Below are positions 4,190 to 52,700 of a DNA stretch of 55,010 nucleotides, in pieces. Source of the stretch: a bacterium (GTDB taxonomy: Bacteria; Cyanobacteriota; Vampirovibrionia; Gastranaerophilales; JBAXKC01); the NCBI GenBank assembly GCA_037137535.1, contig JBAXKC010000018.1, forward strand, positions 1-55,010. The letters are read 5' to 3'. The position numbers and the translations under genes are program-made. Numbering within the stretch: the stretch's first letter is position 1; the number at the start of each line of letters is the position of its first letter. The notes under the pieces are model-generated. The model had not been told where the DNA came from and ran no database searches. It saw only the letters and a list, made by a program, of their open reading frames with translations.

Positions 4190-4204
4190 GTTTTATATAC
4201 CTTG

Positions 4205-5176: not shown

Positions 5177-5181
5177 TATAT

Positions 5182-6588
5182 TTAATCCTCTTTTTGTGCT
5201 TTTTCATTTATAGTTTGTGGAATCATTCTTTCTATCATTTGTTTGATATATTCATTTTCAGAAGAAGCTTCTTTTTTTTGGATTTCTCTGGTAATAACTC
5301 CAAGTAATGAAATTTGATGTTCCTTAAATATATTTTTTAATTGCTTTAGTGTTGATTTTTGAATATTAAGTCCCGTAATTAAAATTAATCCGTCTATAGA
5401 TGAGCCTATTGTTATAGCATCAGGAACTGCAAGAATGGGAGGTGTATCTATTAAAACGAAATCATACCGTTTTTTAAGTTCTTTAATAAGATAATTAAAG
5501 GCAGGTGAAAATAAATATTGGCTTGGGTCTGTAATGGTATTGTTTCCTGTTAATACATATAAATTAGGAGTAGAGGGTACTTTTTGAATAAAAGGATATA
5601 TGTATTTAGGATCAAATTCGCTATCATTTGTTATTGAATCAGTTATAACTGATAATAAACTTTTTATATGGAATTTTTCATCACCTGCTAATCCAAATTC
5701 TGTATGAATTGAGGGTGTTCTTAAATCAGCATCTATAACAATAACTGACCTTCCACCTTTATTTAAGCTCATTGCTATATTTTGAAGGATGGTAGATCGG
5801 TTCTTTGAGTATTCAGCTGATGTAAAAGCAATTGCTTTTGATTTTTTATTTGCAGAGTGTATTTTTAAACTTGTTATTATTTTCTGATAAGCTAAAGCAT
5901 AAAAAGAAGCTAAACTATTTTCAATTACTAAAGAATTAGGGGCTTTATAGGTATCTTTATCAAGCCACGGAATAGTGCCTAATACAGGAGCTTTAATAAT
6001 ATTTTGGAGTTCAAGAATATCAGCGCATGTATCATTTAATAAGTTTTTAATAGTTATACATATCCACCCAAGCAAGGCACTAAGCAGTAAAAAATTTAAA
6101 ATATAATTTAATTTAATCAGTCTGTTTAATTTATTTATAGTATTTGGTTTTTCAATAACGGTAATTTCTGATCTGTTAAAATTATGTTTTTTATATTCGT
6201 TAATTATCTCATTTGCTATTGATAATGAGATTTTAGGATTTTTCCAGTAACTTCTTATTACGATAATATTAGAATTATTGAGATTATCAACTATTACTGA
6301 CTGCTCGAGTTTTTTCATTCCTATTTTGTCGGATAATTTTATTTTGTAATTGTTTTTTATAGAGTTCCAAACATTCATCCTCAAATCATTTGAATTAATA
6401 ATATTAATGTCATTAACTAAAGAATTTGAAGATTTAACTAAAAGCTTTGAAACAGTTTCATAGCTGGGCTTGTAGAATTTATCCGTATAAATTAAGCCGC
6501 AGATTAAGCCTGTGATTAAAAAAATCCCAAATGTTTTTTTATTTTTGTATAGTGGATTAAGAGTTGTTTTTAAGAATGACTTATTCAA
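5182..6588 (-). CDS. Wzz/Wzc-like polysaccharide co-polymerase with degenerate BY-kinase domain
   Basis: two TM segments around a periplasmic region; PVLGTIP; Walker A' VIDADLR and Walker B LIDTPP; Walker A degenerate. Confidence 0.8.
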   Translation of the reverse strand: MNKSFLKTTLNPLYKNKKTFGIFLITGLICGLIYTDKFYKPSYETVSKLLVKSSNSLVNDINIINSNDLRMNVWNSIKNNYKIKLSDKIGMKKLEQSVIVDNLNNSNIIVIRSYWKNPKISLSIANEIINEYKKHNFNRSEITVIEKPNTINKLNRLIKLNYILNFLLLSALLGWICITIKNLLNDTCADILELQNIIKAPVLGTIPWLDKDTYKAPNSLVIENSLASFYALAYQKIITSLKIHSANKKSKAIAFTSAEYSKNRSTILQNIAMSLNKGGRSVIVIDADLRTPSIHTEFGLAGDEKFHIKSLLSVITDSITNDSEFDPKYIYPFIQKVPSTPNLYVLTGNNTITDPSQYLFSPAFNYLIKELKKRYDFVLIDTPPILAVPDAITIGSSIDGLILITGLNIQKSTLKQLKNIFKEHQISLLGVITREIQKKEASSENEYIKQMIERMIPQTINEKAQKED

Positions 6589-6663
6589 GGTAATGCCTAC
6601 TTTTCTATATTAATGCCTATAATTAACAAATGTATTTTAATACAAAAATGCGACTCTGATAAA

Positions 6664-7407
6664 TCAGGCCGCATCTTTTCCGAATAAAACCACAGGTATT
6701 GTTTTTAGCAGTAATTTAAAGTCTAAAAGAATATTCCATTGATTAACATAATCATATTCCAGTTTTACTACCTGATCAAATTCTTTTATCGTTGATCTTC
6801 CGCTAACCTGCCACATTCCCGTAAGTCCCGGTTTTGCCGCAAATCTTAGATAATGCCAATCGTCATATAAATCAACTTCTCTTTGTAATGGAGGCCTAAA
6901 TCCTACAAGACTCATTTCTCCTTTTAGTACGTTGATTAATTGAGGAAGTTCGTCAATGCTGTATTTTCTTATGAATTTACCTACTTTTGTAACTCTCGGG
7001 TCATTAAACATTTTGAACATTTTATTATTAGTTTGATTTTGTTCTTGGAGTTTTTCTAACATTTTTTCTGCATCAACATGCATACTGCGGAATTTATACA
7101 TATAAAATTCTTTGCCATATCGACCTATTCTTTTTTGTTTGAATAAAATAGGACCTTTAGATTCAAGTTTAATCGCTAGAATTACTGCTAAAATAATTGG
7201 AGAAATAGCTAAAAGCCCTGCGAGAGTGGCTGAAAAATCAAATATGGTTTTAATTTTAGACTGAATAGGCTTTCTTTTTTCCAGGCTAAAATTTCTTGAA
7301 ATCCAATAAGGATTACATTTTAGAATAGAATCATCTCCTAAAGAACAATCTTCTTTTAAAGTGAAAGGAAAGTTAAAAACTAATTTTTCTGTTAATACTG
7401 CACTCAT
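6664..7407 (-). CDS. priming glycosyltransferase (WbaP/CpsE-type phosphoglycosyl transferase)
   Basis: FKQKRIG, MYKFRSM, DPRVTKVGKFIRKYSIDELPQL, GEMSLVG, KPGLTGMWQVSGR. Confidence 0.93.
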   Translation of the reverse strand: MSAVLTEKLVFNFPFTLKEDCSLGDDSILKCNPYWISRNFSLEKRKPIQSKIKTIFDFSATLAGLLAISPIILAVILAIKLESKGPILFKQKRIGRYGKEFYMYKFRSMHVDAEKMLEKLQEQNQTNNKMFKMFNDPRVTKVGKFIRKYSIDELPQLINVLKGEMSLVGFRPPLQREVDLYDDWHYLRFAAKPGLTGMWQVSGRSTIKEFDQVVKLEYDYVNQWNILLDFKLLLKTIPVVLFGKDAA

Positions 7408-36030: not shown

Positions 36031-36651
36031 TCAGACATTATTTATTTGCTGTTTTGCCACTAATCTATCGACTATTTCTTTTACATTTTCTTTAGTTAGT
36101 TTTTCATAAAGGATTTCTCTATTTTGAGCGATGGTTTCATCATCTAATAAAGAAAAATCTATTCTAGCTAATTCTTTTCTTATTTCTTCTTCAAATCTGT
36201 ATTTTAATATTTTAGCAGGATTTCCGCCTAGAATAGTATAATCGGGAACATTTTTTGTTACAACCGTTCCTGCTGCAATAATACAACCTTTTCCTATCGT
36301 AACTCCCGATAAAATAATACTGTTTAAACCGATCCAAACATCATCTTTGACGATAATAGGCCCTTTAGTTGCGGCTTCTTCCTTATATCCAAAGTTTTTA
36401 ACCAGAAAAGGGAAAGTTGAAAAGCCTTCATAAGGGTGATTTCCACCTAATAAAAAGGTAACTCCCGATGCTATTGAAACATAATTTCCTATGGTAAGCT
36501 TTTCTTGAGGATGTCCGAAAGTATGAACATCTAAAGGTCCATAAGTTTTCTTTCCTACACTAACTTTTGAAAGATCAAAAATTCTGGTTAAATAAGTTTC
36601 ATTATGAGCGTTCATTCTTCGCCATTGAGCTTGTAATTCATTTCCGTTCAT
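36031..36651 (-). CDS. CatB/Vat-related hexapeptide-repeat O-acetyltransferase
   Basis: LTIGNYVSIA, GGNH, STFPF, DDVWIG, GVTIGKGCIIAAG, GNPAK. Confidence 0.9.
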   Translation of the reverse strand: MNGNELQAQWRRMNAHNETYLTRIFDLSKVSVGKKTYGPLDVHTFGHPQEKLTIGNYVSIASGVTFLLGGNHPYEGFSTFPFLVKNFGYKEEAATKGPIIVKDDVWIGLNSIILSGVTIGKGCIIAAGTVVTKNVPDYTILGGNPAKILKYRFEEEIRKELARIDFSLLDDETIAQNREILYEKLTKENVKEIVDRLVAKQQINNV

Positions 36652-37582
36652 ATAAGTGATTTAAACCTCCAAGATCTATTTTTGATGAGGAATAATGAGA
36701 AATTAAATATTCCATTGCTTCATAAAAATACCAGTCATGTTTATAATCTTTCATATACTTGAAAAAACCTGTTTTTTCAAAGTTGTATTGATTATTAAAA
36801 TCAAAGTAATATGGAATAATATGCTTCAATAATATAAGTTGTTTTTCATTTTCATATATTGTTTTATTTAATAAGCCGCTATCTAAATATTCTTTATATA
36901 AAGACAGATAATTTTGCCCGAATACTTCTGCTATGTTATAACCGCCCTTGTTTGGTACGGTCATGCTTAAGAAATAAGCGGGATTATAGACAGCTGCTTT
37001 TTTTCCCGATGCGATAAGTCTTAATATAACATCAGTCTGAACTAATCTTAATTCATGTTTTCTTGAAAACTCAGTTAAATTATTAAAATCCTCTTTCCAA
37101 AGGCCAAAACCACCTATCCATGTGGAATAAAAAGACGCATAAGAAACAAATTCAGTTAAATTATTGCATAATTTCATTAGTTCTTGATGATTATTTTGAC
37201 CATTTAAAAAGAAAATTACAGGTTTTTCATTAATATTTGCTTTTACTATTTTAACCAGCTCGGCTAAACTTCCATTTTTGGTTAATAAAGTATCGTTTTG
37301 CAGTTTTAAAAAAGTTCCGTTGGCGAGAGCAAGTATATTTTCATAATTTTTATCTGCTCCCATATTAACTTCATTTCGATGATATTTTATTTTGTCAGCA
37401 AATAAATCAACATATTTTTTAACAACAGCTTGAGTTTCATCTTCGGAGCAGTTATCTGAAATAACAATTTCAATTTCGTCGGTTGTTAAAAATGCATTTT
37501 GAATTACAAGACTTTCAAGTATTTTATCCAAATACTTTGCCCTGTTATAGGTAGGAATGCATATTGACAATATTGGGGACAT
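36638..37582 (-). CDS. GT2 glycosyltransferase (abequosyltransferase WbaV-like)
   Basis: LSICIPTYNRA, ISDNCSEDET, NMGADKN; lies in a CDP-3,6-dideoxyhexose cluster; ATG 37582 after AAGGA. Confidence 0.85.
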   Translation of the reverse strand: MSPILSICIPTYNRAKYLDKILESLVIQNAFLTTDEIEIVISDNCSEDETQAVVKKYVDLFADKIKYHRNEVNMGADKNYENILALANGTFLKLQNDTLLTKNGSLAELVKIVKANINEKPVIFFLNGQNNHQELMKLCNNLTEFVSYASFYSTWIGGFGLWKEDFNNLTEFSRKHELRLVQTDVILRLIASGKKAAVYNPAYFLSMTVPNKGGYNIAEVFGQNYLSLYKEYLDSGLLNKTIYENEKQLILLKHIIPYYFDFNNQYNFEKTGFFKYMKDYKHDWYFYEAMEYLISHYSSSKIDLGGLNHLYERK

Positions 37583-37665
37583 TTTATTTTTCCTTATTAA
37601 ACTTATTTTAGTTTGCAAATTAGAGGTGGTTTTTCCCTATAAGATAAAGCAAGCGTTTAATTATG

Positions 37666-38706
37666 TTATAAAAAACTCAGTAAAGTTCTTTTAAATCCCT
37701 CATCTATCGTGGTTTCAGGTTTCCATCCGAGAGTTTTTATCTTGCTTATATCAGGGCAACACCTTACCAGATTGCTTTTTACATAAGTTCCTGACTGTAA
37801 ACTCTCATCTTTTATAACTTTTAGACCTTTTTCGGGAAATAAACCAGCTATTGTTTCAGCAAGTTCCATAATACTTGTTTCTTTATCAATGCTGACATTA
37901 TAGGCTTCACCGTTTTTGCCGTTTAAAAGGACTGTAAGAAAGCCTATTGTCGCATCAGCAATATAACAGAAGGCTCTTGTTGAGCTTCCGTCACTTTTCA
38001 TTATTATATTTCTGTTATGAACAATATCTGCTATAAAATCAGCAAAAACTCTGCCGTCATCAAGACTTATCCCAGGGCCATAGGTATGAAAAGGTCTTAC
38101 TATTTTTGCGGGGATATTATATTGATGATGCCAGGATACACATAAAGTTTCTCCTGCTTTTTTACTTTCAGCGTAGCATGATCTTACTGATAAAGGATTA
38201 ACATAACCGTAGTAAGTTTCTTTAGTTGGAATTAAGCTATCGTTCACTTCTCCGTAGACTTCTCCGCTGCTGAAAAACAGGAAACTTTTTACTTGTTTTT
38301 CTTTTGCTAGTTCTAATAAATTATTAGTGCCTAAAATATTAGCATTCATTGTGCCTACAGGATCAGAACCATAATATTTTGGGCTTGCCTGACTTGCTGC
38401 ATGAATTATAAAATCAACATTTTGTTCTAACTTAATTGGCTTACACACATCTTGAACTATAAACTCCAGATCGGCTCTGTTTTTATGATGGGAAAATATA
38501 GATAAAGCCTTCTCTTTATTTCTTACAAGAGCAATAACTTTTGTATTTCTATTTTGCTTATCGTTCAAGTATAAAAAGGTTTCAACTAAATAAGAAGGTA
38601 AAAATCCATTAGCACCAGAAATTAATATGGTAGCATTTTTAAACTTTTCCCATGCTAAATTTGAATTAAGAATATAATCTAAATCTTCTTTTATAATTTT
38701 ATGCAT
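37666..38706 (-). CDS. NAD-dependent epimerase/dehydratase (extended SDR), candidate side-chain reductase
   Basis: ISGANGFL, IHAASQASP, FSSGEVYG, YAESK (YxxxK), RPFHTYGP. Confidence 0.85.
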   Translation of the reverse strand: MHKIIKEDLDYILNSNLAWEKFKNATILISGANGFLPSYLVETFLYLNDKQNRNTKVIALVRNKEKALSIFSHHKNRADLEFIVQDVCKPIKLEQNVDFIIHAASQASPKYYGSDPVGTMNANILGTNNLLELAKEKQVKSFLFFSSGEVYGEVNDSLIPTKETYYGYVNPLSVRSCYAESKKAGETLCVSWHHQYNIPAKIVRPFHTYGPGISLDDGRVFADFIADIVHNRNIIMKSDGSSTRAFCYIADATIGFLTVLLNGKNGEAYNVSIDKETSIMELAETIAGLFPEKGLKVIKDESLQSGTYVKSNLVRCCPDISKIKTLGWKPETTIDEGFKRTLLSFL

Positions 38707-40501
38707 TGTTTTCGATTTCTTTAACAGGCTCTACAATCATTTCCTGATAAAATTCCTCTCTGGGCAAGAGTGGTGACATATCTTCTAACGGACTGGATAC
38801 CATTCTTCCGTCAGGCTTTCTGACTGATGCTACTCTCGGAGTAAAAGCCTGTAAAGGATCAAGCATTACTTCTATAACAGCAGGGCCGTCAAGCTCTAAC
38901 GCTTGTTTGATTTTTTCTCGAAGATCATCATGGTTAAATATTTGCAGATTTTGTAATCCATACGCATTTGCAATTTTAATTGTATCAGGGCAAGAAAGTC
39001 CGCTGCTTGGGTCTGAGCCTACTAAAAACCCGTCAAAATAAGCATTTTGAGTATGTTTAATACTGAGATAGCCATTATTATTAAATACAAAAAGTTTTAA
39101 AGGAAGATGATAGTGAACCATTGTTTGGAGTTCCTGAATATTTAACTGCAAACCACCGTCACCATGAACACAGACAGTTTGCCCTATATCTTTTGCCAGA
39201 CTTGCCCCTATTGCAGCAGGCAGTCCATATCCCATGGGGGAAAATCCTCCATTAGTAAATGCTTTTTGTCCTTCTTTAAGTTTAAAAGCAGTTGTATAGG
39301 AGTAAAAAGTAGCACCTTGGTCGGTAATAACGCTGTCATCTTTGCTCATTAGCTCAGATAAAACCTCAAAGAAATAATATGAATTAACATAATCTTTTTG
39401 ATTTTTTAATTCAGCTGTTACGACAGGATATTTTTCTCTCCAATGATGACATTTATCAATCCATTTTGAGTAATCACCGTTAAAATTAACCTCTAATTCT
39501 GTATTTAAAGCTGGAATGAAATTTTTTAAATTTGCTTTTACAGGTAAGTCAACATTAATTGTCGGATATTTAAAATAAGCCTCATCAAGGTTTATTACAA
39601 CCTTTTTAGCTTCTCTTGCAAATAAATTTGACTCATATCCAACGGACGAAAAACAAAGTCTACTACCCATGCTTATAACCAAATCAGCGTTCTGAACGGC
39701 AAAATTACCTGCTCTTTGTCCATACGTTCCGAATCTTCCCGCAAGAAGAGGATGAGAGTCATGTATTAAATCAAAAGCAATTTTTGTAGTAACAACAGGA
39801 ATATTATATTTTTCGATAAATTTAATGAATTTATCTTTCATTCCCGAAAGTTTAATGCCATGTCCTGCAATAATAACAGGTCTTTTAGCTTGATTAAGCA
39901 ATTCTTTTATTTGTTTTAGTTCAGAAATTTCAGTATTATCAACTTCTTTTTCAGGATAAAAACCTTTAAGCTCTTCGACTTCAATATTTTTAGATTGTAT
40001 ATCAATAGGTATATCTAGCCATACAGGACCTGGTCTGCCATTTTTAGCAAGATATGCAGCTTTTTCAAGGTGATAACGTATAGTTTTTTCATCTTTAACG
40101 GTAACAGCATATTTTGTAACGGACTCTATCATTTTAACTATATCGACTTCATGTACTCCACGCTGCCTAAGTCCTGTGTCTTCAATTAAAAATTTTGAAT
40201 TAGCTTGCCCTGAAATTACCATAAGAGGAATTGAATCATTCCATGCACAAAGGACACCTGTTAAGGTGTTTGTAGCCGCAGGGCCTGTTGTGGTAAGTGT
40301 TACGCCAAGATTTTCCGTAATTCTCTGATATCCTTCAGCTGCCATAATTGTGGCTTGCTCATGGTGATTACAGATGTATTTTATATCTTCCCTTCTTCCG
40401 AGAGAATCAATTAAAAACATGCCTCCACCGCCTGAAACCATAAAAACATGCTTTACATTTTGTTTTGCAATAAAATCTATGACGTAATCAGATAATCTCA
40501 T
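38699..40501 (-). CDS. thiamine-diphosphate-dependent enzyme (acetolactate synthase-like, YerE-like carboligase)
   Basis: HHEQ, TTGPAATN, GRPGPVWLDIP, MGYGLPAAIGA, ThDP motif GDGG..NN. Confidence 0.88.
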   Translation of the reverse strand: MRLSDYVIDFIAKQNVKHVFMVSGGGGMFLIDSLGRREDIKYICNHHEQATIMAAEGYQRITENLGVTLTTTGPAATNTLTGVLCAWNDSIPLMVISGQANSKFLIEDTGLRQRGVHEVDIVKMIESVTKYAVTVKDEKTIRYHLEKAAYLAKNGRPGPVWLDIPIDIQSKNIEVEELKGFYPEKEVDNTEISELKQIKELLNQAKRPVIIAGHGIKLSGMKDKFIKFIEKYNIPVVTTKIAFDLIHDSHPLLAGRFGTYGQRAGNFAVQNADLVISMGSRLCFSSVGYESNLFAREAKKVVINLDEAYFKYPTINVDLPVKANLKNFIPALNTELEVNFNGDYSKWIDKCHHWREKYPVVTAELKNQKDYVNSYYFFEVLSELMSKDDSVITDQGATFYSYTTAFKLKEGQKAFTNGGFSPMGYGLPAAIGASLAKDIGQTVCVHGDGGLQLNIQELQTMVHYHLPLKLFVFNNNGYLSIKHTQNAYFDGFLVGSDPSSGLSCPDTIKIANAYGLQNLQIFNHDDLREKIKQALELDGPAVIEVMLDPLQAFTPRVASVRKPDGRMVSSPLEDMSPLLPREEFYQEMIVEPVKEIENNA

Positions 40502-40506
40502 TTTTA

Positions 40507-41250
40507 TTATGTCCTTTTTTTAATATCAGAAAATCCTTCATATAACACTAAGGAATCAACTTTATACACAAGAAACTGTATTCCGAGCTGTTTAAAATAA
40601 TCAAGATCATCCCAATTATGAAAAAGACATCCTGCAATTTTTCCTGCTCTTTTAATTTCACTTACCGCATGTTCAAGTATTTCTTTAACTTTTATATTAT
40701 GAACCTCTCCGGGTATACCTAAATATGAAGAAATATCGTATGTTCCCACATAAACAAGGTCAAGCTGCGGATCATCAGCAATATCATAAATATTCTTTAT
40801 TCCGCTTTCGCCCTCTACGATTATCCCTGTTAAAACTCTTTTATTTTCAGATTCGGTATAATCCTTTTGATTTCTATATCCACCTGCTCTTGTATAGGGA
40901 GAAAATCCTCTTATTCCTGATGGTGGATATTTAATGTAAGAAATAGCCTTTTCTCTTTCCTCAACGCTGTCTATGTGAGGTACAATAATTCCGTCTATTC
41001 CAAGGTCTAATGCTCTTAATATTTCTGACTCTTCATTTTTAGAAACACGAATAACCGCTCTGCTTCCTTCCGCTTCAGCTGCCATCACCATTTTTTGAGC
41101 AGTAACGAAGTCAATAGTTCCATGTTCCATATCAATAATTACAAAATCTAATCCTGCTTTTGAAATAACATTAATTACTTCAGGAGAAGGTAAAAGACAC
41201 CATGTTCCGAAAACATTCTGATTTTCATTTAATTTTTCTTTTAAGTACAT
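40507..41250 (-). CDS. HpcH/HpaI-type class II pyruvate aldolase
   Basis: GLDFVIIDMEHG, RALDLG, IIVPH, YPPSGIRG, IVE, VGTYD. Confidence 0.88.
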   Translation of the reverse strand: MYLKEKLNENQNVFGTWCLLPSPEVINVISKAGLDFVIIDMEHGTIDFVTAQKMVMAAEAEGSRAVIRVSKNEESEILRALDLGIDGIIVPHIDSVEEREKAISYIKYPPSGIRGFSPYTRAGGYRNQKDYTESENKRVLTGIIVEGESGIKNIYDIADDPQLDLVYVGTYDISSYLGIPGEVHNIKVKEILEHAVSEIKRAGKIAGCLFHNWDDLDYFKQLGIQFLVYKVDSLVLYEGFSDIKKRT

Positions 41251-42983
41251 GTATTTAACTCCTCAGCATGAAAAAAATTCCTATAATATTTTTTATGTGT
41301 AGTTGGAGTAATGATAGAAAGTGGAACTGATTGTTCATGAAGAAATTCGCTCACTCTTTTAAGTTGAACAACTTGTTTTTCATACATATATGTCCAACTT
41401 TGCTTATCTTCAGGAATGTCCTGTTCATTATAGAAATAATTTAATTCATTTGTTTTTTCATTTACATATCCGTCCATTCCGGCTACGAATATTTCAGATG
41501 CGCCCATTTGATAAGCCATTAGAATAGCAGAAATCGAAACACTCGGATGCAGACAATTCTGAGAATATTCTGTAATACTTGGAATAGAAGGATCATCTAC
41601 TATTTCTACATCAAAATAACTGTATTTATTTGAATAATTTTTTTCTATTAATTCCTTGCCAAAAAAGGATGGAACTAAAAGCGTACTTTTTTCATTTATT
41701 GTTGAAAAATATTTAAGAAATCGTTTTTTACTGATAAAAATTTGATAATCAGGCACAAAGAAATCTCTCATATAATTCATTCCGATAGTAATGCAGTTTT
41801 CTTTTTTAATAAAATTATCAATATTATCTTTATGAGTTAAAATTGAAGGTCCACTTGCTATTATTAAAAACGGTTTTCCTTTATGTTTATTTGCAACGTC
41901 AAGATTATTATTTTTAAACGCATCTTGAGAAGGTATTATTTGAAATTTTTCAGTTATATTCTGACAAATAATTTGAGGTTCGGGAGATGGATTAAAAAAC
42001 ATTTCATTTAAAATTTCATTCATTTTATTTGAACTGTATGAAATAGGGCAATTTTCTTTTATTAAATCAGAAGCTGTCCAAATTTCATCTATTGTATAAA
42101 TATTTTTCTTAAATAAATCATCAACATAATAAGGATGAATATTTTTAAGTCCACCGATTAAAGATTGTAATTTATATCCCCAGTTTAGTTGTTTGAAGAT
42201 CTCCAAATAAAATCTTTCAATAACATCAATGTAAGCAACTGTGTTATATCTTGCATTTCCATTTTTTTCCAGGTAACCGAGTATAATTTCTATAGGAAGA
42301 TTTCCTGAGCCTCTGCCCATTCCAAAAATTGAAGCATCAATGAATGAAGCCCCTTCTTCAATAGCTCTTAATGAGTTCGCAAAAGCCATCTGTAAGTTAT
42401 TATGGGAATGAAATCCTATTTTTTCATATCCGACATCTTTAAGTTTTTTAACTAGAGCAGGAATATCAGTAGGAATAAAAGAACCAAAGCTGTCAGCAAA
42501 GTTAATAGATTCTAAAATATTTTTATTTTGCCAATTTTTTAAAATTTCAAAATGATCTGCTTCAAGCTCAGAGTAGGCCATTATATTAAGGAAAACTTCA
42601 TAACCCTTTTCTTTAAGCTCTTCAACTGTTTTTATTGCTTTTTCTATCTCATAAGGATATGCAGCAACTCTTACCGCCATTATAGGAGTATTAGTTTCTT
42701 TACATTCCTTGAATTGACTACTGTTACATTTTCCCGCATCAATCATAACGGTTAATTTGCATTTTTTTGATGCTTTAAAAATAGAAGTAAGAAATTCATC
42801 GGTACAATATGCAAAATTGCCCAGTCCTGTTATTGTTTCAGGGTATCTGTATCCTATTTCAAAATATTGAACTCCACTATTAAGTGCGGCAAAATACGAT
42901 GTTTTTACGCATAAAGGATCAAAATTCCATTTATTTAAATGCCCGCCATCACGAATAGTGCAATCTATTATTTTGATATCCAT
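41241..42983 (-). CDS. DRE-TIM (HMGL-like, 4-hydroxy-2-oxovalerate aldolase-like) domain fused to a DUF115/Maf/CstII-like domain
   Basis: DCTIRDGG, ADSFG, GFHSHNN, GMGRGSGN; C-terminal IIASGPS..TIGMN..GASEIFVAGMDG. Confidence 0.8.
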   Translation of the reverse strand: MDIKIIDCTIRDGGHLNKWNFDPLCVKTSYFAALNSGVQYFEIGYRYPETITGLGNFAYCTDEFLTSIFKASKKCKLTVMIDAGKCNSSQFKECKETNTPIMAVRVAAYPYEIEKAIKTVEELKEKGYEVFLNIMAYSELEADHFEILKNWQNKNILESINFADSFGSFIPTDIPALVKKLKDVGYEKIGFHSHNNLQMAFANSLRAIEEGASFIDASIFGMGRGSGNLPIEIILGYLEKNGNARYNTVAYIDVIERFYLEIFKQLNWGYKLQSLIGGLKNIHPYYVDDLFKKNIYTIDEIWTASDLIKENCPISYSSNKMNEILNEMFFNPSPEPQIICQNITEKFQIIPSQDAFKNNNLDVANKHKGKPFLIIASGPSILTHKDNIDNFIKKENCITIGMNYMRDFFVPDYQIFISKKRFLKYFSTINEKSTLLVPSFFGKELIEKNYSNKYSYFDVEIVDDPSIPSITEYSQNCLHPSVSISAILMAYQMGASEIFVAGMDGYVNEKTNELNYFYNEQDIPEDKQSWTYMYEKQVVQLKRVSEFLHEQSVPLSIITPTTHKKYYRNFFHAEELNTCT

Positions 42984-43744
42984 AAACCCTCTTTAATATT
43001 TATATCTCCCAAACTAGTTGAAATATATGGTGAATATTCTAATAATTCATCATAATCTATCTGTCCTGTCGTTATTCCGATTCCTGCTTTTAGATCAGCA
43101 TTTTTAGCCATAATAAGATCCATCGGGGCATCGCCTATGCAAATAGTTTCATTATTATTTGCTTTTAACAGTTCCATTGCTTTTAAAGCCGGTATTCCTG
43201 TATGTTTAGGCTCAACCGTTGATTCTTTTCCTATTATTAAATCAAAATAATTATCAATTTTTAGATATTTTAATGTTTCTTCAGTATTTTTGACTGAATC
43301 TGAAGTAACAACAGCTATTTTAACAGATTTTGCTTTAATTGCTTTAAGTAAAGGTATCACATCAGGCAATAATTCAATATAATCAAAAATTTCATTAAGA
43401 AATTCATTATGTTCTCTGACAAAAATCTCATCAATATCATTATGTGATACTTGAATGTTTAGTTTTAATAAATAATCTGCAAGAATTTTAATAACCTGCT
43501 CTCTATTTACAAGTGCAATAGGTCCTTCTTTTATAAGTTTCCATTTATCTGTGCAAAGACCCATTGTTAAACAAATATCAGAAAATAGAGCTTTATCAAG
43601 GTGGAATTTGGAAATTAAAGCAAGAGCTCTTCTTTCAATAATTCTGCCCCAATATTTATGACTGTCAATTAACGTTCCGTCCTTGTCAAATAATACGGCA
43701 TTAATTGAATCTATGCTCCAATGATTTGTCGAAATATTTATCAT
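42968..43744 (-). CDS. HAD-superfamily phosphatase
   Basis: LFDKDGTL (DxD), VVTS, PK, IGDAPMD. Confidence 0.88.
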   Translation of the reverse strand: MINISTNHWSIDSINAVLFDKDGTLIDSHKYWGRIIERRALALISKFHLDKALFSDICLTMGLCTDKWKLIKEGPIALVNREQVIKILADYLLKLNIQVSHNDIDEIFVREHNEFLNEIFDYIELLPDVIPLLKAIKAKSVKIAVVTSDSVKNTEETLKYLKIDNYFDLIIGKESTVEPKHTGIPALKAMELLKANNNETICIGDAPMDLIMAKNADLKAGIGITTGQIDYDELLEYSPYISTSLGDINIKEGLWISK

Positions 43745-43747
43745 TAG

Positions 43748-44725
43748 CTACCCCAAATATTTTAAGGACTCATTCACCAGCCAGAGAGCTTTCTCTAATG
43801 CTTTTTCAAAAACAGCTTGATTTTCAAGAAAATCCTCTCTGTCTATCTGTTCTCTTACAATTTTACGGGCAAATGAACCTATTGCAACGCCATTTGCATT
43901 AATTTCGCATTGTTTTGCAAATTCAGTTGTTTTTGAATTTGTACCGCCTGAAAGAAGAATATAAACAGGTAATTCAGCATTTTGTACTATTTCAGCTGTT
44001 GCTACCGTCTGTAATGTGGTTTTATAAGTATCGTCAGAACCGCTCATAGGAGCGCCATCAGCTTGAACAATTGTTGTATATGGCTTTCTGTTACTTATTA
44101 ACCTTTTTACTCTATCAATCAGCTGAATATTGCCAAGCTTTGAACGGTCAATGCAAACGCTTAATAAACCATCAAAGGAATTATTAAGGATTTCCCATTT
44201 TTCTTCTACTTCTTGTTCATTTGTACCAAGTGCATGCAGTTCTATTGCGCTTAATCCTTTTTTAACAAGTGGAGGTATAACAATCTCAAGTGGCTTATTT
44301 TCCGAATAAGAGGTAATGGCTTTTGACGGACAAGTTTCAATACATTTTCCACATCCGATACAACGCACTTTATTGACTATAAATTTATCATTATTACTGA
44401 TAGCATTTTGAGGACAATCATCTAAACATATAGAGCATGAAACGCATTTGTCATTATCAATTAATGCCTTGCTGACATGAGGATCGCCTTTTATTCCAAC
44501 GCTCACGCAAAAGTGATAATTATGAATTTCATCAGGGGCGATAACCCTGTTTAATCCTCTGTATGCCGCATCAACAATTTCTTCTTTAGCGCAAAGATCA
44601 AAAAATTTAACTCCTGCTTTTGCATAAAGTGCAACTAATTTTTCAATTTCTATTGCATCTTCATTTCCTGCTCCACAGACGAGTTTAAAACACTTTTTAC
44701 TTGCTAAAAGCTCATTTAATTTCAT
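43748..44725 (-). CDS. ldpA: LdpA-family 2x[4Fe-4S] protein
   Basis: FKLVCGAG, DPH, CVSCSICLDDCP, CIGCGKCIETCP, AIELH, QADGAPMSG, LSGGTN, GVAIGSFARK match recalled cyanobacterial LdpA motifs; GAGGT RBS. Confidence 0.8.
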   Translation of the reverse strand: MKLNELLASKKCFKLVCGAGNEDAIEIEKLVALYAKAGVKFFDLCAKEEIVDAAYRGLNRVIAPDEIHNYHFCVSVGIKGDPHVSKALIDNDKCVSCSICLDDCPQNAISNNDKFIVNKVRCIGCGKCIETCPSKAITSYSENKPLEIVIPPLVKKGLSAIELHALGTNEQEVEEKWEILNNSFDGLLSVCIDRSKLGNIQLIDRVKRLISNRKPYTTIVQADGAPMSGSDDTYKTTLQTVATAEIVQNAELPVYILLSGGTNSKTTEFAKQCEINANGVAIGSFARKIVREQIDREDFLENQAVFEKALEKALWLVNESLKYLG

Positions 44726-44831: not shown

Positions 44832-46214
44832 TTAATCCTTATAGGTCGCATCTTTACTGCAAATAAAACTTTCTATTGTCTTTATAATTAAGTTCAGATG
44901 TTTTTCTTCTAATCCGGGCCAGACTCCTATCCAGAAAGTGCTATTCATAACAGTATCAGTATTTGGAAGTAATTTATAATGCTCTTCCGTTAACTCTTTT
45001 GTGTTCAATATTCCAGAGTTTTTAATTCTGATTTTTATATTATTTTCCACATAAGCAGGCTGTCTTAGCATATTTCCCGCAAAAAGTTGTCTTGTACCTA
45101 TATTGTTTGATTCTAGGAATTTAACCAGTTCAATTTTATCAAATTTTTTATTTTCTTTAACGGTAAGAGTAAAGCCAAACCAAGATGGCTCTGATTTTTC
45201 AGGATGAGAAGGCAAGAGAAGATATTTCTCAAATGGTTTTAAACCATCATATAATATTTTGAAATTGTCATTTCTAAGCTTTATAAAACCTTGCAGCTTT
45301 TTAAGTTGAGCTAAACCGCAAGCAGCCTGCCAATCAGTTATTTTTAGATTGTAGCCCAAATGAGAATAAGTATATTTATGGTCATAACCCATAGGTAAAT
45401 TACCTAATTGATAAGAAAATCGTTTTTTACATGTGTCGTCTTTACCAGGTGGACACCAACAATCACGTCCCCAATCTCTAAATGACATTATTATCTTATA
45501 TAAATTAGGGTCATTAGTGACTAAAGCGCCTCCCTCTCCCATTGTTATATGGTGAGCGGGATAAAAGCTGAATGTGCCGATATGTCCGTGAGTACCTGTA
45601 AATTTACCGTTATATTTTGCACCAAGTGCATCACAGCTGTCTTCAATCAGCCATAAATTATATTTTTCACATAATTCTTTTATTTTATCTAATTCAAAAA
45701 CATTGCCGAGAGTATGAGCTACAAAAACAGCTTTAGTCTTGTCTGTTATCGCTTCTTCAATTTGAGAAAAATCAATATTATAAGTAGAAAGCTCTACATC
45801 AACAAAGACAGGAATTAATCCGTTTTGAATAATTGGATTAATTGTTGTAGGAAAGCCTGCACCTACTGTTATTATTTCATCACCTGCTTTTAAAGCCTTT
45901 TCACCAAGTTTTTGTGAGGTTAACGCAGAAATAGCAAGTAAATTTGCAGATGAGCCTGAATTTGTCGTTAAAGCATATTTAGTTCCTAAAAATTTTGCAA
46001 ATTCTTTTTCAAATTTATCATTAAAACGTCCTGTCGTGAGCCACATATCAAGACTTGCGTCTATCATGTTTAAAAGCTCCTGTTCATCAAGGACTTTACC
46101 CGATGCAGGGATATATTTTAATTCTTTTTTGCATCCGTAAACTACGCTGTAATATAGTTTTGCTGTTAATTTAACTGTATTGCGAAGTAATTTTTCAACA
46201 ATTTCGGATTTCAT
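44832..46214 (-). CDS. rfbH: CDP-4-keto-6-deoxyglucose 3-dehydrase (E1/DdhC)
   Basis: NSGSSANL, SFYPAHHITMGEGG (His at the usual PLP-Lys position), RDWGRDCWCPPGKDDTC Fe-S ligands, YDHKYTYSHLGYNLK; ATGA overlap with the rfbG stop. Confidence 0.93.
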   Translation of the reverse strand: MKSEIVEKLLRNTVKLTAKLYYSVVYGCKKELKYIPASGKVLDEQELLNMIDASLDMWLTTGRFNDKFEKEFAKFLGTKYALTTNSGSSANLLAISALTSQKLGEKALKAGDEIITVGAGFPTTINPIIQNGLIPVFVDVELSTYNIDFSQIEEAITDKTKAVFVAHTLGNVFELDKIKELCEKYNLWLIEDSCDALGAKYNGKFTGTHGHIGTFSFYPAHHITMGEGGALVTNDPNLYKIIMSFRDWGRDCWCPPGKDDTCKKRFSYQLGNLPMGYDHKYTYSHLGYNLKITDWQAACGLAQLKKLQGFIKLRNDNFKILYDGLKPFEKYLLLPSHPEKSEPSWFGFTLTVKENKKFDKIELVKFLESNNIGTRQLFAGNMLRQPAYVENNIKIRIKNSGILNTKELTEEHYKLLPNTDTVMNSTFWIGVWPGLEEKHLNLIIKTIESFICSKDATYKD

Positions 46215-47332
46215 TTTAAATTTTCCCCACTCCACGATATATTTTGACTTTGAGCTGTTGAAACATAATTTTTTATTTGATTATAAGTATAATTTTCTAA
46301 ATCGTTATTTCCCGAATAAAATTCTTTATACCAGTCAACGGTTTCTTTAATAGCCTCATCAGCTTTATAAACAGGTTTCCAATCAAGATAAGTCATTGCT
46401 TTGCTTATGTCTAATTTTAATAAATTTGCTTCGTGTAATTCTTGAGCGCCTGTAATGTTTAAATTTCCGCCACCCCAATGTTTGATAGTTTTTTCGACTA
46501 CTTTTTCTACTGTCAGGACAGAATCGTCATAAGGACCAAAATTCCAGCCCGAAGAGTATTTTATAGGATTTTCTATAAGTTTTTCAGCCAATAGAAGATA
46601 ACCTGACAATGGCTCAAGGACGTGTTGCCATGGTCTTGTAGCTTTTGGACTTCTGATTTGTATAGTTTCATTGTTTGAAAGTGATCTTATGCAGTCGGGA
46701 ATAAGTCTGTCTTCTGCCCAATCACCGCCACCTATGACATTACCCGCTCTTCCCGAAGCTAAAGCCATATTATGAGTTTGCTCAAAGTCTTTAGGATTGA
46801 AAAAAGAGTTTCTGTAGGAAGAAGTTAAAAGCTCGGCGATACCTTTGCTTGAGCTGTAAGGGTCGTATCCGCCCATCGGGTCAATTTCTCTGTAACCGTA
46901 AATATATTCTTTATTTTCATAGCATTTATCGCTTGTTACGTTAACAACAGCTCGAACGCAGTCATTTGCTCTTACTGCTTCAAGAACATTTAAAGTTCCC
47001 ATTATATTTGTTTCATAGGTAGTTAAAGGATCTTTATAAGAAAGCCTTACCAATGGTTGAGCTGCTAAATGAAACACAATTTCAGGATTATATTGTTTAA
47101 TAACTTTTTTTAAATGCTCGGCATTTCTTACATCGCCAATTATATGAGTTAATTTTTTATTTAATTGAAGTTTATTAAACATTGACGGGGTTGTATTAGG
47201 TTCTAAGGAATATCCGATAACCTCAGCACCCATCATTTCAAGCCATAAAGAAAGCCAACTGCCTTTAAATCCTGTGTGGCCTGTGACTAAAACTTTTTTA
47301 TTTCTATAAAAATCAGAAAAAGTGTTTTTCAT
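46211..47332 (-). CDS. rfbG: CDP-glucose 4,6-dehydratase
   Basis: VTGHTGFKGSWL, HLAAQPLVR, TSDKCYEN, DPYSSSK, RAGNVIGGGDW, RPWQHVLEPL. Confidence 0.96.
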   Translation of the reverse strand: MKNTFSDFYRNKKVLVTGHTGFKGSWLSLWLEMMGAEVIGYSLEPNTTPSMFNKLQLNKKLTHIIGDVRNAEHLKKVIKQYNPEIVFHLAAQPLVRLSYKDPLTTYETNIMGTLNVLEAVRANDCVRAVVNVTSDKCYENKEYIYGYREIDPMGGYDPYSSSKGIAELLTSSYRNSFFNPKDFEQTHNMALASGRAGNVIGGGDWAEDRLIPDCIRSLSNNETIQIRSPKATRPWQHVLEPLSGYLLLAEKLIENPIKYSSGWNFGPYDDSVLTVEKVVEKTIKHWGGGNLNITGAQELHEANLLKLDISKAMTYLDWKPVYKADEAIKETVDWYKEFYSGNNDLENYTYNQIKNYVSTAQSQNISWSGENLK

Positions 47333-47334
47333 AA

Positions 47335-48108
47335 TTACTCCCATATTTTCCATGGAGCATTTCCGTCTTTCCATAATTTTTCCAGCTCAACTTTTTCTCT
47401 TAAAGTGTCCATTGGTTGCCAAAACCCATTATGTCTATAAGCATATAAATTATTTTCTTCCGCCAGTTTTTCGAGTGGTTCTTTTTCCCAAATTGTAGAA
47501 TCACCGTCTATATAATTAAATATTTCAGGTTCAAGCACAAAGAATCCGCCATTTACCCATGAACCGTCACCTGCAGGTTTTTCCATAAATGAAGATACGC
47601 TGTTGTCTTCTTGAATATTTAACGAGCCAAATCTTCCTTTTGGAATTACAGAAGTTAAAGTGGCAAGTTTTTTGCTTTCTTTGTGGGCTTTTATTGTTTC
47701 GGTAATATTAACATTGCTAAGCCCATCACCATAAGTTAAAAGGAAAGTTTCATTTCCTATATAATCTTGTACTCTTTTTAGTCTTCCGCCTGTCATGGTA
47801 TTAACTCCCGTATCAACAAGAGTTACTTTCCAAGGTTCAGCAACATTTTTGTGAATTTCTACAGAATTATTAATTAAATTTACTGTTATGTCTGATTGGT
47901 GCATATAATAATTTGTGAAGTATTCTTTTATAACATATCCTTTGTATCCAAGTAGGATGATAAAATCATTTAAACCATAATGAGAGTAAAGTTTCATTAT
48001 ATGCCATAATATAGGTTTTCCACCTATTTCAATCATAGGTTTAGGCTTTATATCAGTTTCTTCGCTTAATCTTGTCCCAAATCCACCAGCTAATAATACT
48101 GTTTTCAT
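47335..48108 (-). CDS. rfbF: glucose-1-phosphate cytidylyltransferase
   Basis: LAGGFGTRLSEET..PKPM, TMTGGRLKR, TYGDG, NGGFFV, FWQPMDTLR, APWKIW. Confidence 0.96.
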   Translation of the reverse strand: MKTVLLAGGFGTRLSEETDIKPKPMIEIGGKPILWHIMKLYSHYGLNDFIILLGYKGYVIKEYFTNYYMHQSDITVNLINNSVEIHKNVAEPWKVTLVDTGVNTMTGGRLKRVQDYIGNETFLLTYGDGLSNVNITETIKAHKESKKLATLTSVIPKGRFGSLNIQEDNSVSSFMEKPAGDGSWVNGGFFVLEPEIFNYIDGDSTIWEKEPLEKLAEENNLYAYRHNGFWQPMDTLREKVELEKLWKDGNAPWKIWE

Positions 48109-49783: not shown

Positions 49784-52700
49784 ATGGTAAACATTAATCT
49801 TTATGCAGATGAAGTTGCTGAAAACAAGTATATTTATAAATATAACGGCGATAATGATCTTCAAAGCAAGGAAGAATATAATCAAGCAGGTTTATTGATT
49901 TCAGAAACTCATTACAGTTATAGTGGTGTTGCCACTTTAAGCTCTTACACTAAAGATACATACCAATATGATAATAACAACCAAAAAATTTCAGATATTG
50001 AATATAGTTATAACGCTAGCGGGACATTAGAATCGGAAGAAAAATGGCTTAACGATAATAAGTCAGGATTAATTCCTGTTTATGAAAAACTTTACACAAA
50101 TGGTCAGCTTACTTCTTCTCTGTCATATACTGACAGAACTTTAGATGTTAATGGAAATATAACAGGTGCGACTATAATAGATAACCTTAATAACGACAGC
50201 ATCTACGGGCATGTTGTAAGAAACGGTAATACATTTGAATTTTATAAAATAGACGGAAATCAAGAAGTTCTTGAAAGGCAATATGTATTTACTTTTGATG
50301 AAAGTGGAAATGTATTAACTGAAACAGGTTTAATTTTAAGAAACAGCAGCTGGGTTCAAAAATATCAAGATGTTTATACATATGGTCAGAACAATATAAT
50401 ATTAAGTGAAGAACATTATCAAATTAATGAATCAGATTTAGAGCATCCTTATTACTATAAAAAAAATAATACTTATGACGGAAATAACCTATTAGCTTCT
50501 TATACCCAAGAATGGCATCAAGCAGGCGGAGATGGAACTGCTAATGTTGTTTTAAATTATGATAATGGTAGATTGATTTCAGAAATAAGAACAGTTGCCG
50601 ATCAGCCTGATAAACAATATTATACCGATGTTAAAGTAAGTGATGGTAATTATTATTTAGGCACTTATGCAAATGAATTAATACAGGGAAGTGACAAAAT
50701 AAGTTCAGCTTTTAATGGAAATGGTGGAAATGATACCATCATAGGTGGTTCAGGCAATGATAATATCGATAATTCTGGCGGCACTGCCATAATGATTGGC
50801 GGGGCAGGAGATGACACCTATGTTGTTAATAACTTAAATGACGTTATTATTGAAGGAGCTGACGGTGGAAATGATCAGGTATTGCAGACTGTAAATAATT
50901 ACACGTTAGATGCTAATGTAGAAACATTAAGAATATATAATGAACTTGGTTTAACCGCTTCAGGTAATGATTCAGATAATACAATAATAGGCTCATACGG
51001 TAACGATACAATTATCGGCGGTAAAGGTAATGATGTCTTATATGGGTCGGGTGGTGACGCAGCAGATGCTCAAGCAGATATACCACATTCAAATGATACT
51101 TATCTCTTTAATCAGGGCGATGGATTTGACACGATTAAAGATGGTGATGGTACGGATAAAATTATATTCGGAAACGGTATATTAAAATCTAATACCACTT
51201 TTTCATTAACAGGTAATGACTTACTTGTTAATGTCAATGGCAGCGATACTGATAAAATACTTATTAAAGACTGGAATACCGCTGCTAATAATATTGAAGA
51301 ATTATGTTTCTCTGATGGAAGCAAATATATAAATTCTCAAATAAATGCCTCTTTATATTCGCATAGCTCTAATTTTTTATACAGAATTGATCCGACAACA
51401 AACACAGTGATGGGTAAAAAAGAATTTAACGCAAATGGTCAGTTAGTTGAGTTTAGTTTTAATGTTGATAATGTAAATACTAAATATAGACGTCAATATG
51501 ACCAGAATGGTGTTTGGACAGGAGTTACGGTTACAGAAACTACCGATCAAACGATAACTGCAAGGGATGAGTATGAAGTTGATGCAACAGGAAGATTTAT
51601 CCCTGTTACTCATCTTTGGACAAACAATAGCGGAATAGTCCAGCCTGAACAGCACTATCAAAAAGTTTTTACTAATAATGTTCTTACTCAATTAGATATA
51701 TTAAATCTTGATAATAATAAAATAGGCGAAATTAATACTACTGATACAGGGACAGGAGCAAATAGGGTTATAACCTCTAATGGCTTTTATTTGGATGGGG
51801 ATACTCATGTAAACCCATATACTGATACTCAGACCTTTTATTCAGATGGACAAACTGTAAAAGATTTTATACATTATGAACCGGGTGATTTGGGTGGAAC
51901 TCATAAAGAAACCTATGATACAGCAGGCAGACATCTTCTTATTGAACAGATTGACAATGCTTCAGGTGCAAATTTCCTTGACAGAACAACCTTTCAGTAT
52001 GATGCAAACGGTAATTTTACGAGCATAATTCAGACCTATCACGACAGCTCTATTCATTTAGATAAAACAATAACTTCTACTTTTAATTACTTAGAAGGTG
52101 GTTTGATTTCAGAATCCAGAGTTATTGTAACAACAGAAAATAATGGAGATCCAGTAACCACTAATGATAAACTAATCTATTCTAATGTTTATTCGGATAA
52201 TGGTGTCTATAATGATACAACTCCTTTTAATGTAATTTCTGCTTCTAGTAATGGTAGTAATAACATAAGTGCAACAGGTGGAAGTGTTATTGTTGTAGGT
52301 GGAAGTCAATCTGACTTGATTTCATTGAACAGCTCCGGTAACGCTGTGGTTATGGCTGGGCAAGGAAATGACACAATTGCAGATTACGGAACAAATACAA
52401 CTTATTATTATAGCTTAGGTGATGGAAGCGATATAATAACTGATCCAGATGGAACAGACGTAATTAAATTTACTGGAGTTAATCCAAATAATCTGACATT
52501 TGACACTATTGGTGATAATCATGAAAATCTTTTAATTACAATAAGTGATACAGATAAAATTACTATTCAAAATTGGGTAACAAGCCTTGATAATCAAATT
52601 GAAACATTCAAATTTGATAATGGAAGTGTTTGGACAGCTCAAACTATAAATAATATCCTCAATGGTGGCATCAGACCTAATGAGGGAACCAGCGGTAATG

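Follow-up and report, generated by a model that had tools for sequence, protein, structure and literature searches.

An LdpA-family iron-sulfur protein as a probable enzyme of side-chain precursor synthesis in a predicted acyl-branched dideoxyhexose operon of a Gastranaerophilales bacterium

To our knowledge, LdpA has since 2003-2005 been known only as a redox-sensitive input protein of the cyanobacterial clock. A 2017 survey treats LdpA as a clock factor exclusive to Cyanobacteria (PMC5520375), and a 2026 review describes a redox-sensing role for clock LdpA and calls the way in which it controls CikA still unresolved (PMC13421787). Here we analyzed a gene for an LdpA-family protein located in a 55,010-nucleotide stretch of DNA (the window; contig JBAXKC010000018.1, assembly GCA_037137535.1) from a bacterium of the order Gastranaerophilales, class Vampirovibrionia. 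The Gastranaerophilales/Melainabacteria are the non-photosynthetic sister lineage of cyanobacteria. The gene directly follows rfbH, which is predicted to encode the iron-sulfur dehydrase E1 of 3,6-dideoxyhexose clusters. E3, also named AscD, RfbI or DdhD, is a plant-type [2Fe-2S] ferredoxin fused to a flavin adenine dinucleotide (FAD)/NAD(P)H ferredoxin-reductase module. The closest described pathway is the scheme for acyl-branched sugars of Steitz et al. (2022), in which cytidine diphosphate (CDP)-4-keto-3,6-dideoxyglucose and a hydroxylated 2-oxo acid, the latter from pyruvate aldolases, are joined by a thiamine diphosphate (ThDP)-dependent enzyme and the product is then reduced (PMC9306805). 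In the case of erwiniose, the BphI-like aldolase is supplied with aldehyde by the acylating acetaldehyde dehydrogenase ErwJ (PMC9306805). Among the papers listed, our literature search found none linking clock-type LdpA to cassettes of this kind, to rfbH, dideoxyhexose, aldolase, Melainabacteria or Vampirovibrionia, and none describing LdpA as a triosephosphate isomerase (TIM) barrel; the titles and abstracts on DUF561/ycf23 included none on function.

The ldpA-like gene is the fourth in an 11-gene co-directional run on the minus strand of the window (48108 to 36031). From the gene content, the conserved gene order, the predicted fold and the invariant residues of the protein, we conclude that this operon probably builds a CDP-activated, acyl-branched 3,6-dideoxyhexose, and that LdpA most likely acts in it as an iron-sulfur TIM-barrel enzyme of the 2-oxo-acid module, not as the E3 partner of RfbH. 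The genes of the run are as follows:

47335..48108, minus strand: rfbF, glucose-1-phosphate cytidylyltransferase, with which the operon begins (TIGR02623, 438.5 bits, cut-off 300)
46211..47374, minus strand: rfbG, CDP-glucose 4,6-dehydratase (TIGR02622, 523.7 bits, cut-off 278)
44832..46235, minus strand: rfbH (E1), CDP-6-deoxy-L-threo-D-glycero-4-hexulose 3-dehydrase, iron-sulfur type (NF011936, 697.8 bits, cut-off 423)
43748..44725, minus strand: LdpA-family protein, 325 amino acids (aa), ATG start (Pfam LdpA_C and LdpA_Fe-S-bd; NF045992; AlphaFold2 model)
42968..43744, minus strand: HAD-family phosphatase, found downstream of ldpA as its conserved partner (Pfam Hydrolase and HAD_2)
41241..42983, minus strand: HMGL-like pyruvate aldolase of the BphI/DmpG type with a fused MptE-like (DUF115) domain (Pfam HMGL-like, residues 3-242; MptE-like, residues 361-504; TIGR03217 4-hydroxy-2-oxovalerate aldolase, 101.8 bits, sub-threshold)
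40507..41250, minus strand: HpcH/HpaI-family class II pyruvate aldolase (Pfam HpcH_HpaI, 96.2 bits; TIGR02311 HpaI, 146 bits, sub-threshold)
38699..40501, minus strand: ThDP-dependent carboligase with the acetolactate-synthase fold (domains TPP_enzyme_N, M and C; every acetolactate-synthase equivalog below its cut-off)
37666..38706, minus strand: NAD-dependent short-chain dehydrogenase/reductase (SDR; Pfam Epimerase, 156.8 bits)
36638..37618, minus strand: family-2 glycosyltransferase (GT2; Glycos_transf_2, 66 bits)
36031..36651, minus strand: hexapeptide-repeat O-acetyltransferase, last gene of the run (Hexapep; Vat/CatB-like, sub-threshold)

All elements of the acyl-branched-sugar scheme are found in this operon. 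Its deoxy-keto-sugar genes come together with a ThDP carboligase and an NAD(P)H reductase, and both the BphI/ErwI and the aldolase/citrate-lyase (MMAR_2331) types of pyruvate aldolase are present, the combination by which such a cluster is recognized. The ThDP enzyme would be YerE/ErwE-like by its position, with its role taken by analogy from PMC9306805, and the SDR, placed right after it, is a candidate YerF/ErwF-like side-chain ketoreductase. The genes from ldpA to the SDR gene are tightly packed, with gaps of 3 and 5 nucleotides (nt) or overlaps of 8-16 nt at their junctions and the HAD gene beginning 3 nt past the ldpA stop codon, whereas 106 nt separate the end of rfbH from the start of ldpA. 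A promoter/terminator scan of this gap found neither a terminator-like nor a minus-strand promoter-like site, so that a separate transcription unit gets no support.

The LdpA-like protein exceeds the gathering scores of both Pfam families of LdpA (LdpA_C, 75.3 bits, cut-off 22.2; LdpA_Fe-S-bd, 30.7 bits, cut-off 27.6) and has two Fer4 stretches. Against the NCBIfam model CircClkLdpA (NF045992) it scored 149.7 bits, with an alignment that covers positions 9-343 of the 360 in the model. This is below the equivalog cut-off of 450, and the protein is therefore considered a member of the family and is not called an orthologue of the clock protein. The cluster motifs C94-x2-C97-x2-C100-x3-C104-P and C122-x2-C125-x2-C128-x3-C132-P, each with the four cysteines of a [4Fe-4S] site, fall between the N-terminal and C-terminal halves of the barrel described below, and their eight cysteines are invariant in 45 homologues as well as in a 17-sequence alignment. 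The first-pass annotation had noted an LdpA-like gene with two CxxCxxCxxxCP motifs after rfbH and 3 nt from the HAD gene, which the Pfam matches and the coordinates of the open reading frames (ORFs) confirm. The nearest homologues, with 60-67% identity, come from records named Candidatus Gastranaerophilales or Melainabacteria.

An AlphaFold2 model based on the 45-sequence alignment (predicted local distance difference test, pLDDT, 93.6; predicted template modeling score, pTM, 0.91) shows an eight-stranded beta/alpha barrel in which a two-cluster (2x[4Fe-4S]) ferredoxin domain follows strand 3 and precedes helix 3 as an insert (residues about 85-141). Judging from the topology, the insert would lie on the barrel face where the active sites of TIM barrels are located. 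When the model was compared with known structures by Foldseek and VIA-align, the top match was 2-keto-3-deoxy-6-phosphogluconate (KDPG) aldolase (8di1_A; Z 17.5, root mean square deviation 2.9, 209 aligned), followed by ribulose-phosphate epimerase (RPE; 1tqx, Z 17.1) and hexulose-phosphate synthase (HPS; 9lj9, Z 17.1). The best relatives of the modeled structure are, in other words, phosphate-binding aldolase, epimerase and synthase barrels. Invariant residues at the strand ends are K14, C17, D43, S75, D81-P-H83, K86, E162, H164, Q221, D223, GGTN at 260-263, G283-S284 and R287 (numbering of the window protein), the GGTN and GS motifs coming after strands 7 and 8. The barrel residues stay invariant once 11 LdpAs of photosynthetic cyanobacteria (28-31% identity) join the alignment. 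On the model, this conservation has the pattern of an enzyme pocket, unlike that of a simple electron carrier. When solved structures were searched with a sequence profile, the matches were confined to the ferredoxin insert (residues about 78-162), and no solved relative of the barrel came up. Prediction of a complex between the LdpA-like protein and the HMGL-like aldolase domain (residues 1-330), both entered as alignments, gave scores of 0.23 and 0.00 against a mark of 0.32, in a run without controls.

The neighbors of ldpA in other genomes point to the keto-acid genes as its partners. In a scan of species-representative genomes we considered the best 80 of at least 581 LdpA relatives and counted partners within contiguous co-directional chains. 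Thirty-seven loci were partnered; 30 of them have the HMGL-like aldolase, 21 have HAD, 12 the ThDP enzyme and 10 rfbH. By combination, the partners were the aldolase only (15 loci), rfbH, HAD, aldolase and ThDP enzyme together (9 loci), HAD only (7 loci), HAD, aldolase and ThDP enzyme without rfbH (3 loci), HAD and aldolase (2 loci), and rfbH and aldolase (1 locus); rfbH never occurred in the chain of ldpA without the aldolase. Reduced forms are exemplified by two genomes with an ldpA-aldolase pair (G205 and G399) and one with an ldpA-HAD pair (G273), none of which was among the rfbH matches (E<=1e-60) and in none of which a ThDP enzyme with more than 32% identity to that of the window was found. 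Conversely, loci L037, L043 and L044 have rfbH and a ThDP enzyme without ldpA and carry a different keto-acid gene set, which indicates that ldpA varies with the keto-acid module and not with rfbH.

Twenty further ldpA loci were examined with flanks of about 9 kb and showed three contexts. In type A (11 of 20 loci) a 'core' copy lies behind a Beta-lactamase2-family gene. Type B (5 of 20) consists of an ldpA-HAD pair whose other neighbors are not conserved, so that ldpA-HAD is the sole conserved pair in all five, and type C (3 of 20) has the cassette or, in reduced form, ldpA paired with the aldolase. The remaining locus belongs to none of the three contexts. The HAD gene stands directly after ldpA in B-type and C-type loci. 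Two-copy genomes combine types A and C, B and C, or, twice, A and B. When 45 sequences were placed in a tree, the type A copies grouped in a single clade (support 99) and so did those of type B (support 100), with type C as a short-branched grade beneath them, and the nearest relative of the window protein was a cassette copy without adjacent rfbH. The Beta-lactamase2-family gene upstream of the 'core' copies was considered as a functional clue and dropped as uninformative synteny.

Four further class genomes have the order rfbF-rfbG-rfbH-ldpA as well, and three of them repeat the order of the window from rfbF through the ThDP enzyme; the rfbF-rfbG-rfbH-ldpA order was also seen in records labeled as other phyla and in viral contigs. 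Full or near-full cassettes with an LdpA identity of 55-64% were seen at L131, L206, L193, L199, L200 and L144, in records that carry the labels Elusimicrobiota, Omnitrophota, Planctomycetales, Candidatus Aquicultor and Geobacter. These other-phylum cassettes reflect either horizontal transfer of the cassette or mislabeled bins.

LdpA relatives with 33-55% identity are also encoded by 23 viral contigs, of which 19 have the ThDP enzyme in the locus and 16 have rfbH. In the four viral loci scanned with Pfam (L110, L112, L113 and L124) an HpcH-like aldolase is encoded directly upstream of ldpA. With their full flanks, two of them (L110:7213-10779 and L113:4055-8665) combine ldpA and HpcH-like aldolases with genes for a CTP_transf_3 cytidylyltransferase and for an MptE-like (DUF115) protein, and neither rfbH nor the ThDP enzyme was found there. 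This gene set suggests that the keto acid can also be activated with cytidine monophosphate (CMP), like an ulosonic acid. Directly after ldpA, in the position of the bacterial HAD gene, these phages have a conserved ORF of about 120 aa without Pfam match (L112:9140-9520, L124:9109-9465, L110:9070-9438 and L113:6783-7163).

Taken as a pathway, with a logic modeled on erwiniose and caryophyllose, the operon would work as follows. RfbF, RfbG and RfbH would make CDP-4-keto-3,6-dideoxyglucose. On a parallel branch, LdpA would transform a small, probably phosphorylated carbon compound by an iron-sulfur-dependent redox or dehydration step; we infer both the phosphorylated substrate and the type of reaction. 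The HAD phosphatase would remove the phosphate from the LdpA product, and the two pyruvate aldolases would condense the dephosphorylated compound with pyruvate to a 2-oxo acid. The ThDP enzyme would couple this hydroxylated 2-oxo acid to the deoxy-keto sugar, the SDR would reduce the new ketone, and GT2 and the acetyltransferase would complete a surface-glycan product. A redox enzyme of side-chain synthesis was one of two roles that the first-pass annotation had offered for LdpA, and the aldolase and HAD partners, the barrel fold and the invariant pocket fit it well.

Some observations weigh against assigning LdpA to the 2-oxo-acid module. More than half of the relatives in the genome scan, 43 of the best 80 loci, have none of the counted partners in their chain, and all 30 ldpA loci inspected from photosynthetic cyanobacteria lack a HAD, aldolase, rfbH or ThDP neighbor within 1.5 kb; the argument from context therefore rests on one part of the family. 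Most phage cassettes are without a recognizable HAD gene. In one of the class genomes (G024) the cassette is reduced to rfbH followed by ldpA and an aldolase, with the ThDP enzyme 20 kb off. Since the gene order recurs elsewhere, the adjacency of ldpA and rfbH exceeds chance, and the two genes co-occur far beyond it. As to the fold, the flavin barrel DusB (Z 15.1) scored only about 2.4 Z under the non-flavin barrels, and by fold alone the modeled barrel may have a site for flavin mononucleotide (FMN).

A first alternative is an E3 substitute, in which electrons would go one at a time from the two [4Fe-4S] clusters of LdpA to the [2Fe-2S] cluster of RfbH and the barrel would bind flavin or dock the reductant. 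Electron donation to RfbH was the other role proposed at first pass, where no RfbI, AscD or DdhD had been seen in the window. By its sequence RfbH is a true iron-sulfur E1 and hence requires an electron donor. It is a DegT-fold dehydrase that matched the solved Yersinia E1 (3bcx) with 566.8 bits, and it keeps the cysteine of CDALG, the CxC-x7-C stretch and the AHH motif, with the histidine that replaces the Schiff-base lysine; the alignment to 3bcx retains CDALG, DCWCPPGKDDTC and PAHH. The CxC-x7-C cysteines and the one upstream are presumably the cluster ligands of E1. E3 was searched for through its generic domains Fer2, FAD_binding_6 and NAD_binding_1, a search that a very divergent E3 could escape. 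None of them matched the window ORFs of at least 110 aa. In the genome of the window (G000; 2.95 Mb, 100% complete, 81 contigs) the sole NAD_binding_1 protein is a 285-aa PyrK type with a DHODB_Fe-S_bind tail, FAD_binding_6 gave one sub-threshold match, and Fer2 gave three matches over the cut-off in frames of 590-675 aa and a fourth, sub-threshold, in a 278-aa frame. A canonical E3-type reductase was not found by these searches, so what had been said of the window is borne out and extends to the whole genome.

Electron transfer from LdpA would also agree with the linkage of the two genes and with an FMN-binding barrel, which the fold allows. Matches to rfbH (E<=1e-60) were found in 139 of the 401 class genomes. 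Among the 42 genomes with the places of both genes listed, a partial count that covers 150 of the 287 LdpA places, ldpA adjoins rfbH in five (G000, G024, the second copy of G131, G247 and G373), and in the other 37 the genes are on other contigs or far apart. The neighborhood survey that the first-pass annotation had suggested thus shows a linkage that is not unique to this genome, and rfbH recurs in the ldpA chain in 10 of the best 80 related loci and in 16 of the 23 viral loci. Against this stands, first, the LdpA-like protein itself, in which Pfam found no Fer2, FAD_binding_6 or NAD_binding_1 match. Second, 16 of 16 other class rfbH loci, none with ldpA beside it, showed none of the three domains in the 70 of 144 flanking ORFs that were scanned (at least 100 aa, within 4.5 kb; rfbF and rfbG identified by BLAST and more distant ORFs were omitted), and five more rfbH-bearing genomes of the order of the window gave the PyrK-type NAD_binding_1 match alone. 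Third, 34 of the 104 genomes of family f5 have rfbH, and LdpA was found in 0 of 104. Five rfbH-bearing f5 genomes gave one NAD_binding_1 match each, and both of the matches examined with Pfam belong to hydrogenase-like operons. With rfbH present and neither LdpA nor an E3-type protein found in the f5 genomes searched, RfbH seems to run without either there. Finally, LdpA is paired with aldolase or HAD in the genomes where rfbH was not found and in rfbH-free phage loci.

In view of the enzyme-like site of the predicted barrel as well, we regard an E3 role of LdpA as unlikely and find no support for the proposal that it serves RfbH as an electron donor instead of E3. An E3-type protein was not found in any of the 11 rfbH-bearing class genomes checked with these domains, and the iron-sulfur E1 seems to run without a dedicated E3 throughout the class, in f5 also without LdpA; if so, an iron-sulfur E1 without its own E3 would be common here. 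The reductant of E1 in this anaerobe is probably a generic low-potential donor. In family f9, a gene with a Flavin_Reduct domain was seen about 1 kb from rfbH (L045:10970-11593 and L046:7261-7887); its product may be another source of electrons for E1 in this lineage. At three other class loci (L036, L041 and L042) rfbH is followed by a split transketolase with N and pyrimidine/C halves, L041 and L042 also having a DegT::GNAT fusion; the deoxy-keto sugar is the same here, but the chemistry that branches or tailors it is a different one.

According to a second alternative, LdpA is a housekeeping or regulatory protein, the sole copy of a phylum-wide redox sensor and possibly a KaiBC input, which came into the operon by rearrangement or for redox regulation and is not catalytic there. 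The distribution of the family is in line with this. The phylum survey detected LdpA in 197 of 201 genomes, in most cases with one copy per genome; only 71 of the 201 exceed the clock-LdpA cut-off, and the other matched genomes score roughly 145-410 bits on NF045992. In the class survey LdpA_C was present in 279 of 401 genomes, and within the order of the window in 184 of 188 genomes of family f2 and in 0 of 104 of family f5. The genome of the window has one LdpA-family gene and, on contig C42:19841-21593, kaiB (80.3 bits) beside kaiC (584 bits; equivalog cut-off 546), in a non-photosynthetic Melainabacterium, and the cassette copies are only a short tree distance away from the 'core' copies. 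Nevertheless, the cassette order is kept in genomes that have a separate further copy (types A and C in G131, types B and C in G322), the cassette recurs in records labeled as other phyla and in phage contigs, and ldpA and the HAD gene generally lie close together or overlap. This recurrence makes a chance co-location of ldpA unlikely, and to the housekeeping explanation as a whole we give quite little credence. Of the genome content that the first-pass annotation had wanted checked, kaiB and kaiC were found, and an rfbI-type E3 and a second ldpA were not found in the genome; its suggestion of a metabolic, non-clock function for the family gains from fold and context in its metabolic part, and 'non-clock' needs a caveat given the kaiB-kaiC pair.

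That LdpA is a late tailoring enzyme acting on the nucleotide sugar after ThDP coupling, for instance by reductive removal of a branch hydroxyl, would suit its iron-sulfur clusters and its co-occurrence with the ThDP enzyme, seen at 12 of the 37 partnered loci from genomes and at 19 of the 23 viral loci, but it is highly improbable given the ldpA-aldolase and ldpA-HAD modules where neither rfbH nor a close ThDP relative was found, the phage loci L110 and L113 that pair ldpA with a CMP-transferase-type gene instead, and a barrel closest to enzymes of small sugar phosphates.

If LdpA indeed belongs to the 2-oxo-acid module, a family that is near-universal in the sampled phylum, including the many copies that score under the clock cut-off, would in some lineages and phages be wired into operons for the 2-oxo-acid side chains of branched sugars. 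Its chemistry would then become a bench question with defined partner enzymes, and the acyl-branched-sugar scheme of 2022 would gain a new precursor module. It is a more tentative idea, and one that we doubt more than we favor, that the whole family, including the clock input of Synechococcus and a plant-dominated cluster, consists of iron-sulfur TIM-barrel enzymes of aldehyde or 2-oxo-acid-precursor metabolism, the clock phenotype lying downstream of a redox-dependent activity and not reflecting a dedicated sensor. On this idea, the Melainabacterial and phage cassettes, which combine LdpA with a HAD phosphatase and pyruvate aldolases, would be the first genomic handle on the substrate of the family. 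The plant-dominated cluster is a structural neighbor in the ESM Atlas with 169 members (template modeling score by query 0.89; LdpA_C and LdpA_Fe-S-bd), of which 99% are Eukaryota, mostly Streptophyta, and another neighbor cluster is commonest in Uroviricota. For an extension of the family to plants and phages these clusters are leads only.

Two other features of the window were recorded. An ORF of more than 1740 aa on the plus strand (49784-55009), which runs past the end of the window, has 11 RTX/HemolysinCabind repeat stretches and an HCBP_related domain and probably encodes a large secreted calcium-binding repeat protein. A second, small group of glycan genes lies 30 kb from the operon on the minus strand (3203-7407) and comprises a Bac_transf priming transferase, an AAA_31/ParA-like (tyrosine-kinase-like) gene, an NAD epimerase and Acyl_transf_3.

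Compared with E3 (AscD/RfbI/DdhD), the only likeness of the LdpA-like protein is that of an iron-sulfur protein encoded beside E1 in a 3,6-dideoxyhexose cluster; it has two [4Fe-4S] motifs on a TIM barrel, and the Fer2, FAD_binding_6 and NAD_binding_1 domains of E3 are unmatched. A closer parallel in architecture is offered by IspG (GcpE) and dihydropyrimidine dehydrogenase/PreA, which are TIM barrels coupled to [4Fe-4S] domains, with a phosphorylated substrate in IspG. The likeness lies in a substrate-binding barrel fed with electrons by iron-sulfur clusters; no sequence relationship to either was found, and neither was among the top structural matches of the LdpA-like model. With LdpA of Synechococcus elongatus PCC 7942 (PF12617, PF25160, NF045992) the protein shares the domain order, the eight cluster cysteines and the invariant barrel residues, as seen in the alignment with the 11 LdpAs of photosynthetic cyanobacteria. 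It differs from these in its identity of 28-31%, its score below the 450-bit cut-off, its non-photosynthetic host and its place in a sugar/keto-acid cassette, the genes of which are absent within 1.5 kb of the 30 photosynthetic-cyanobacterial loci.

The clusters for erwiniose (ErwE/F/I/J), caryophyllose (MMAR_2331/2332) and gastriose (MyGE/MygI/MygF) have in common with the operon the deoxy-keto-sugar genes, a ThDP carboligase, a reductase and one or more aldolases. As described in PMC9306805, they are without an LdpA-like barrel, a HAD gene or an aldolase::MptE fusion. Erwiniose in turn has ErwJ, and the operon described here is without a gene for such a dehydrogenase. By analogy, LdpA together with the HAD phosphatase would fill the logical slot that the acetaldehyde dehydrogenase has in the erwiniose pathway.

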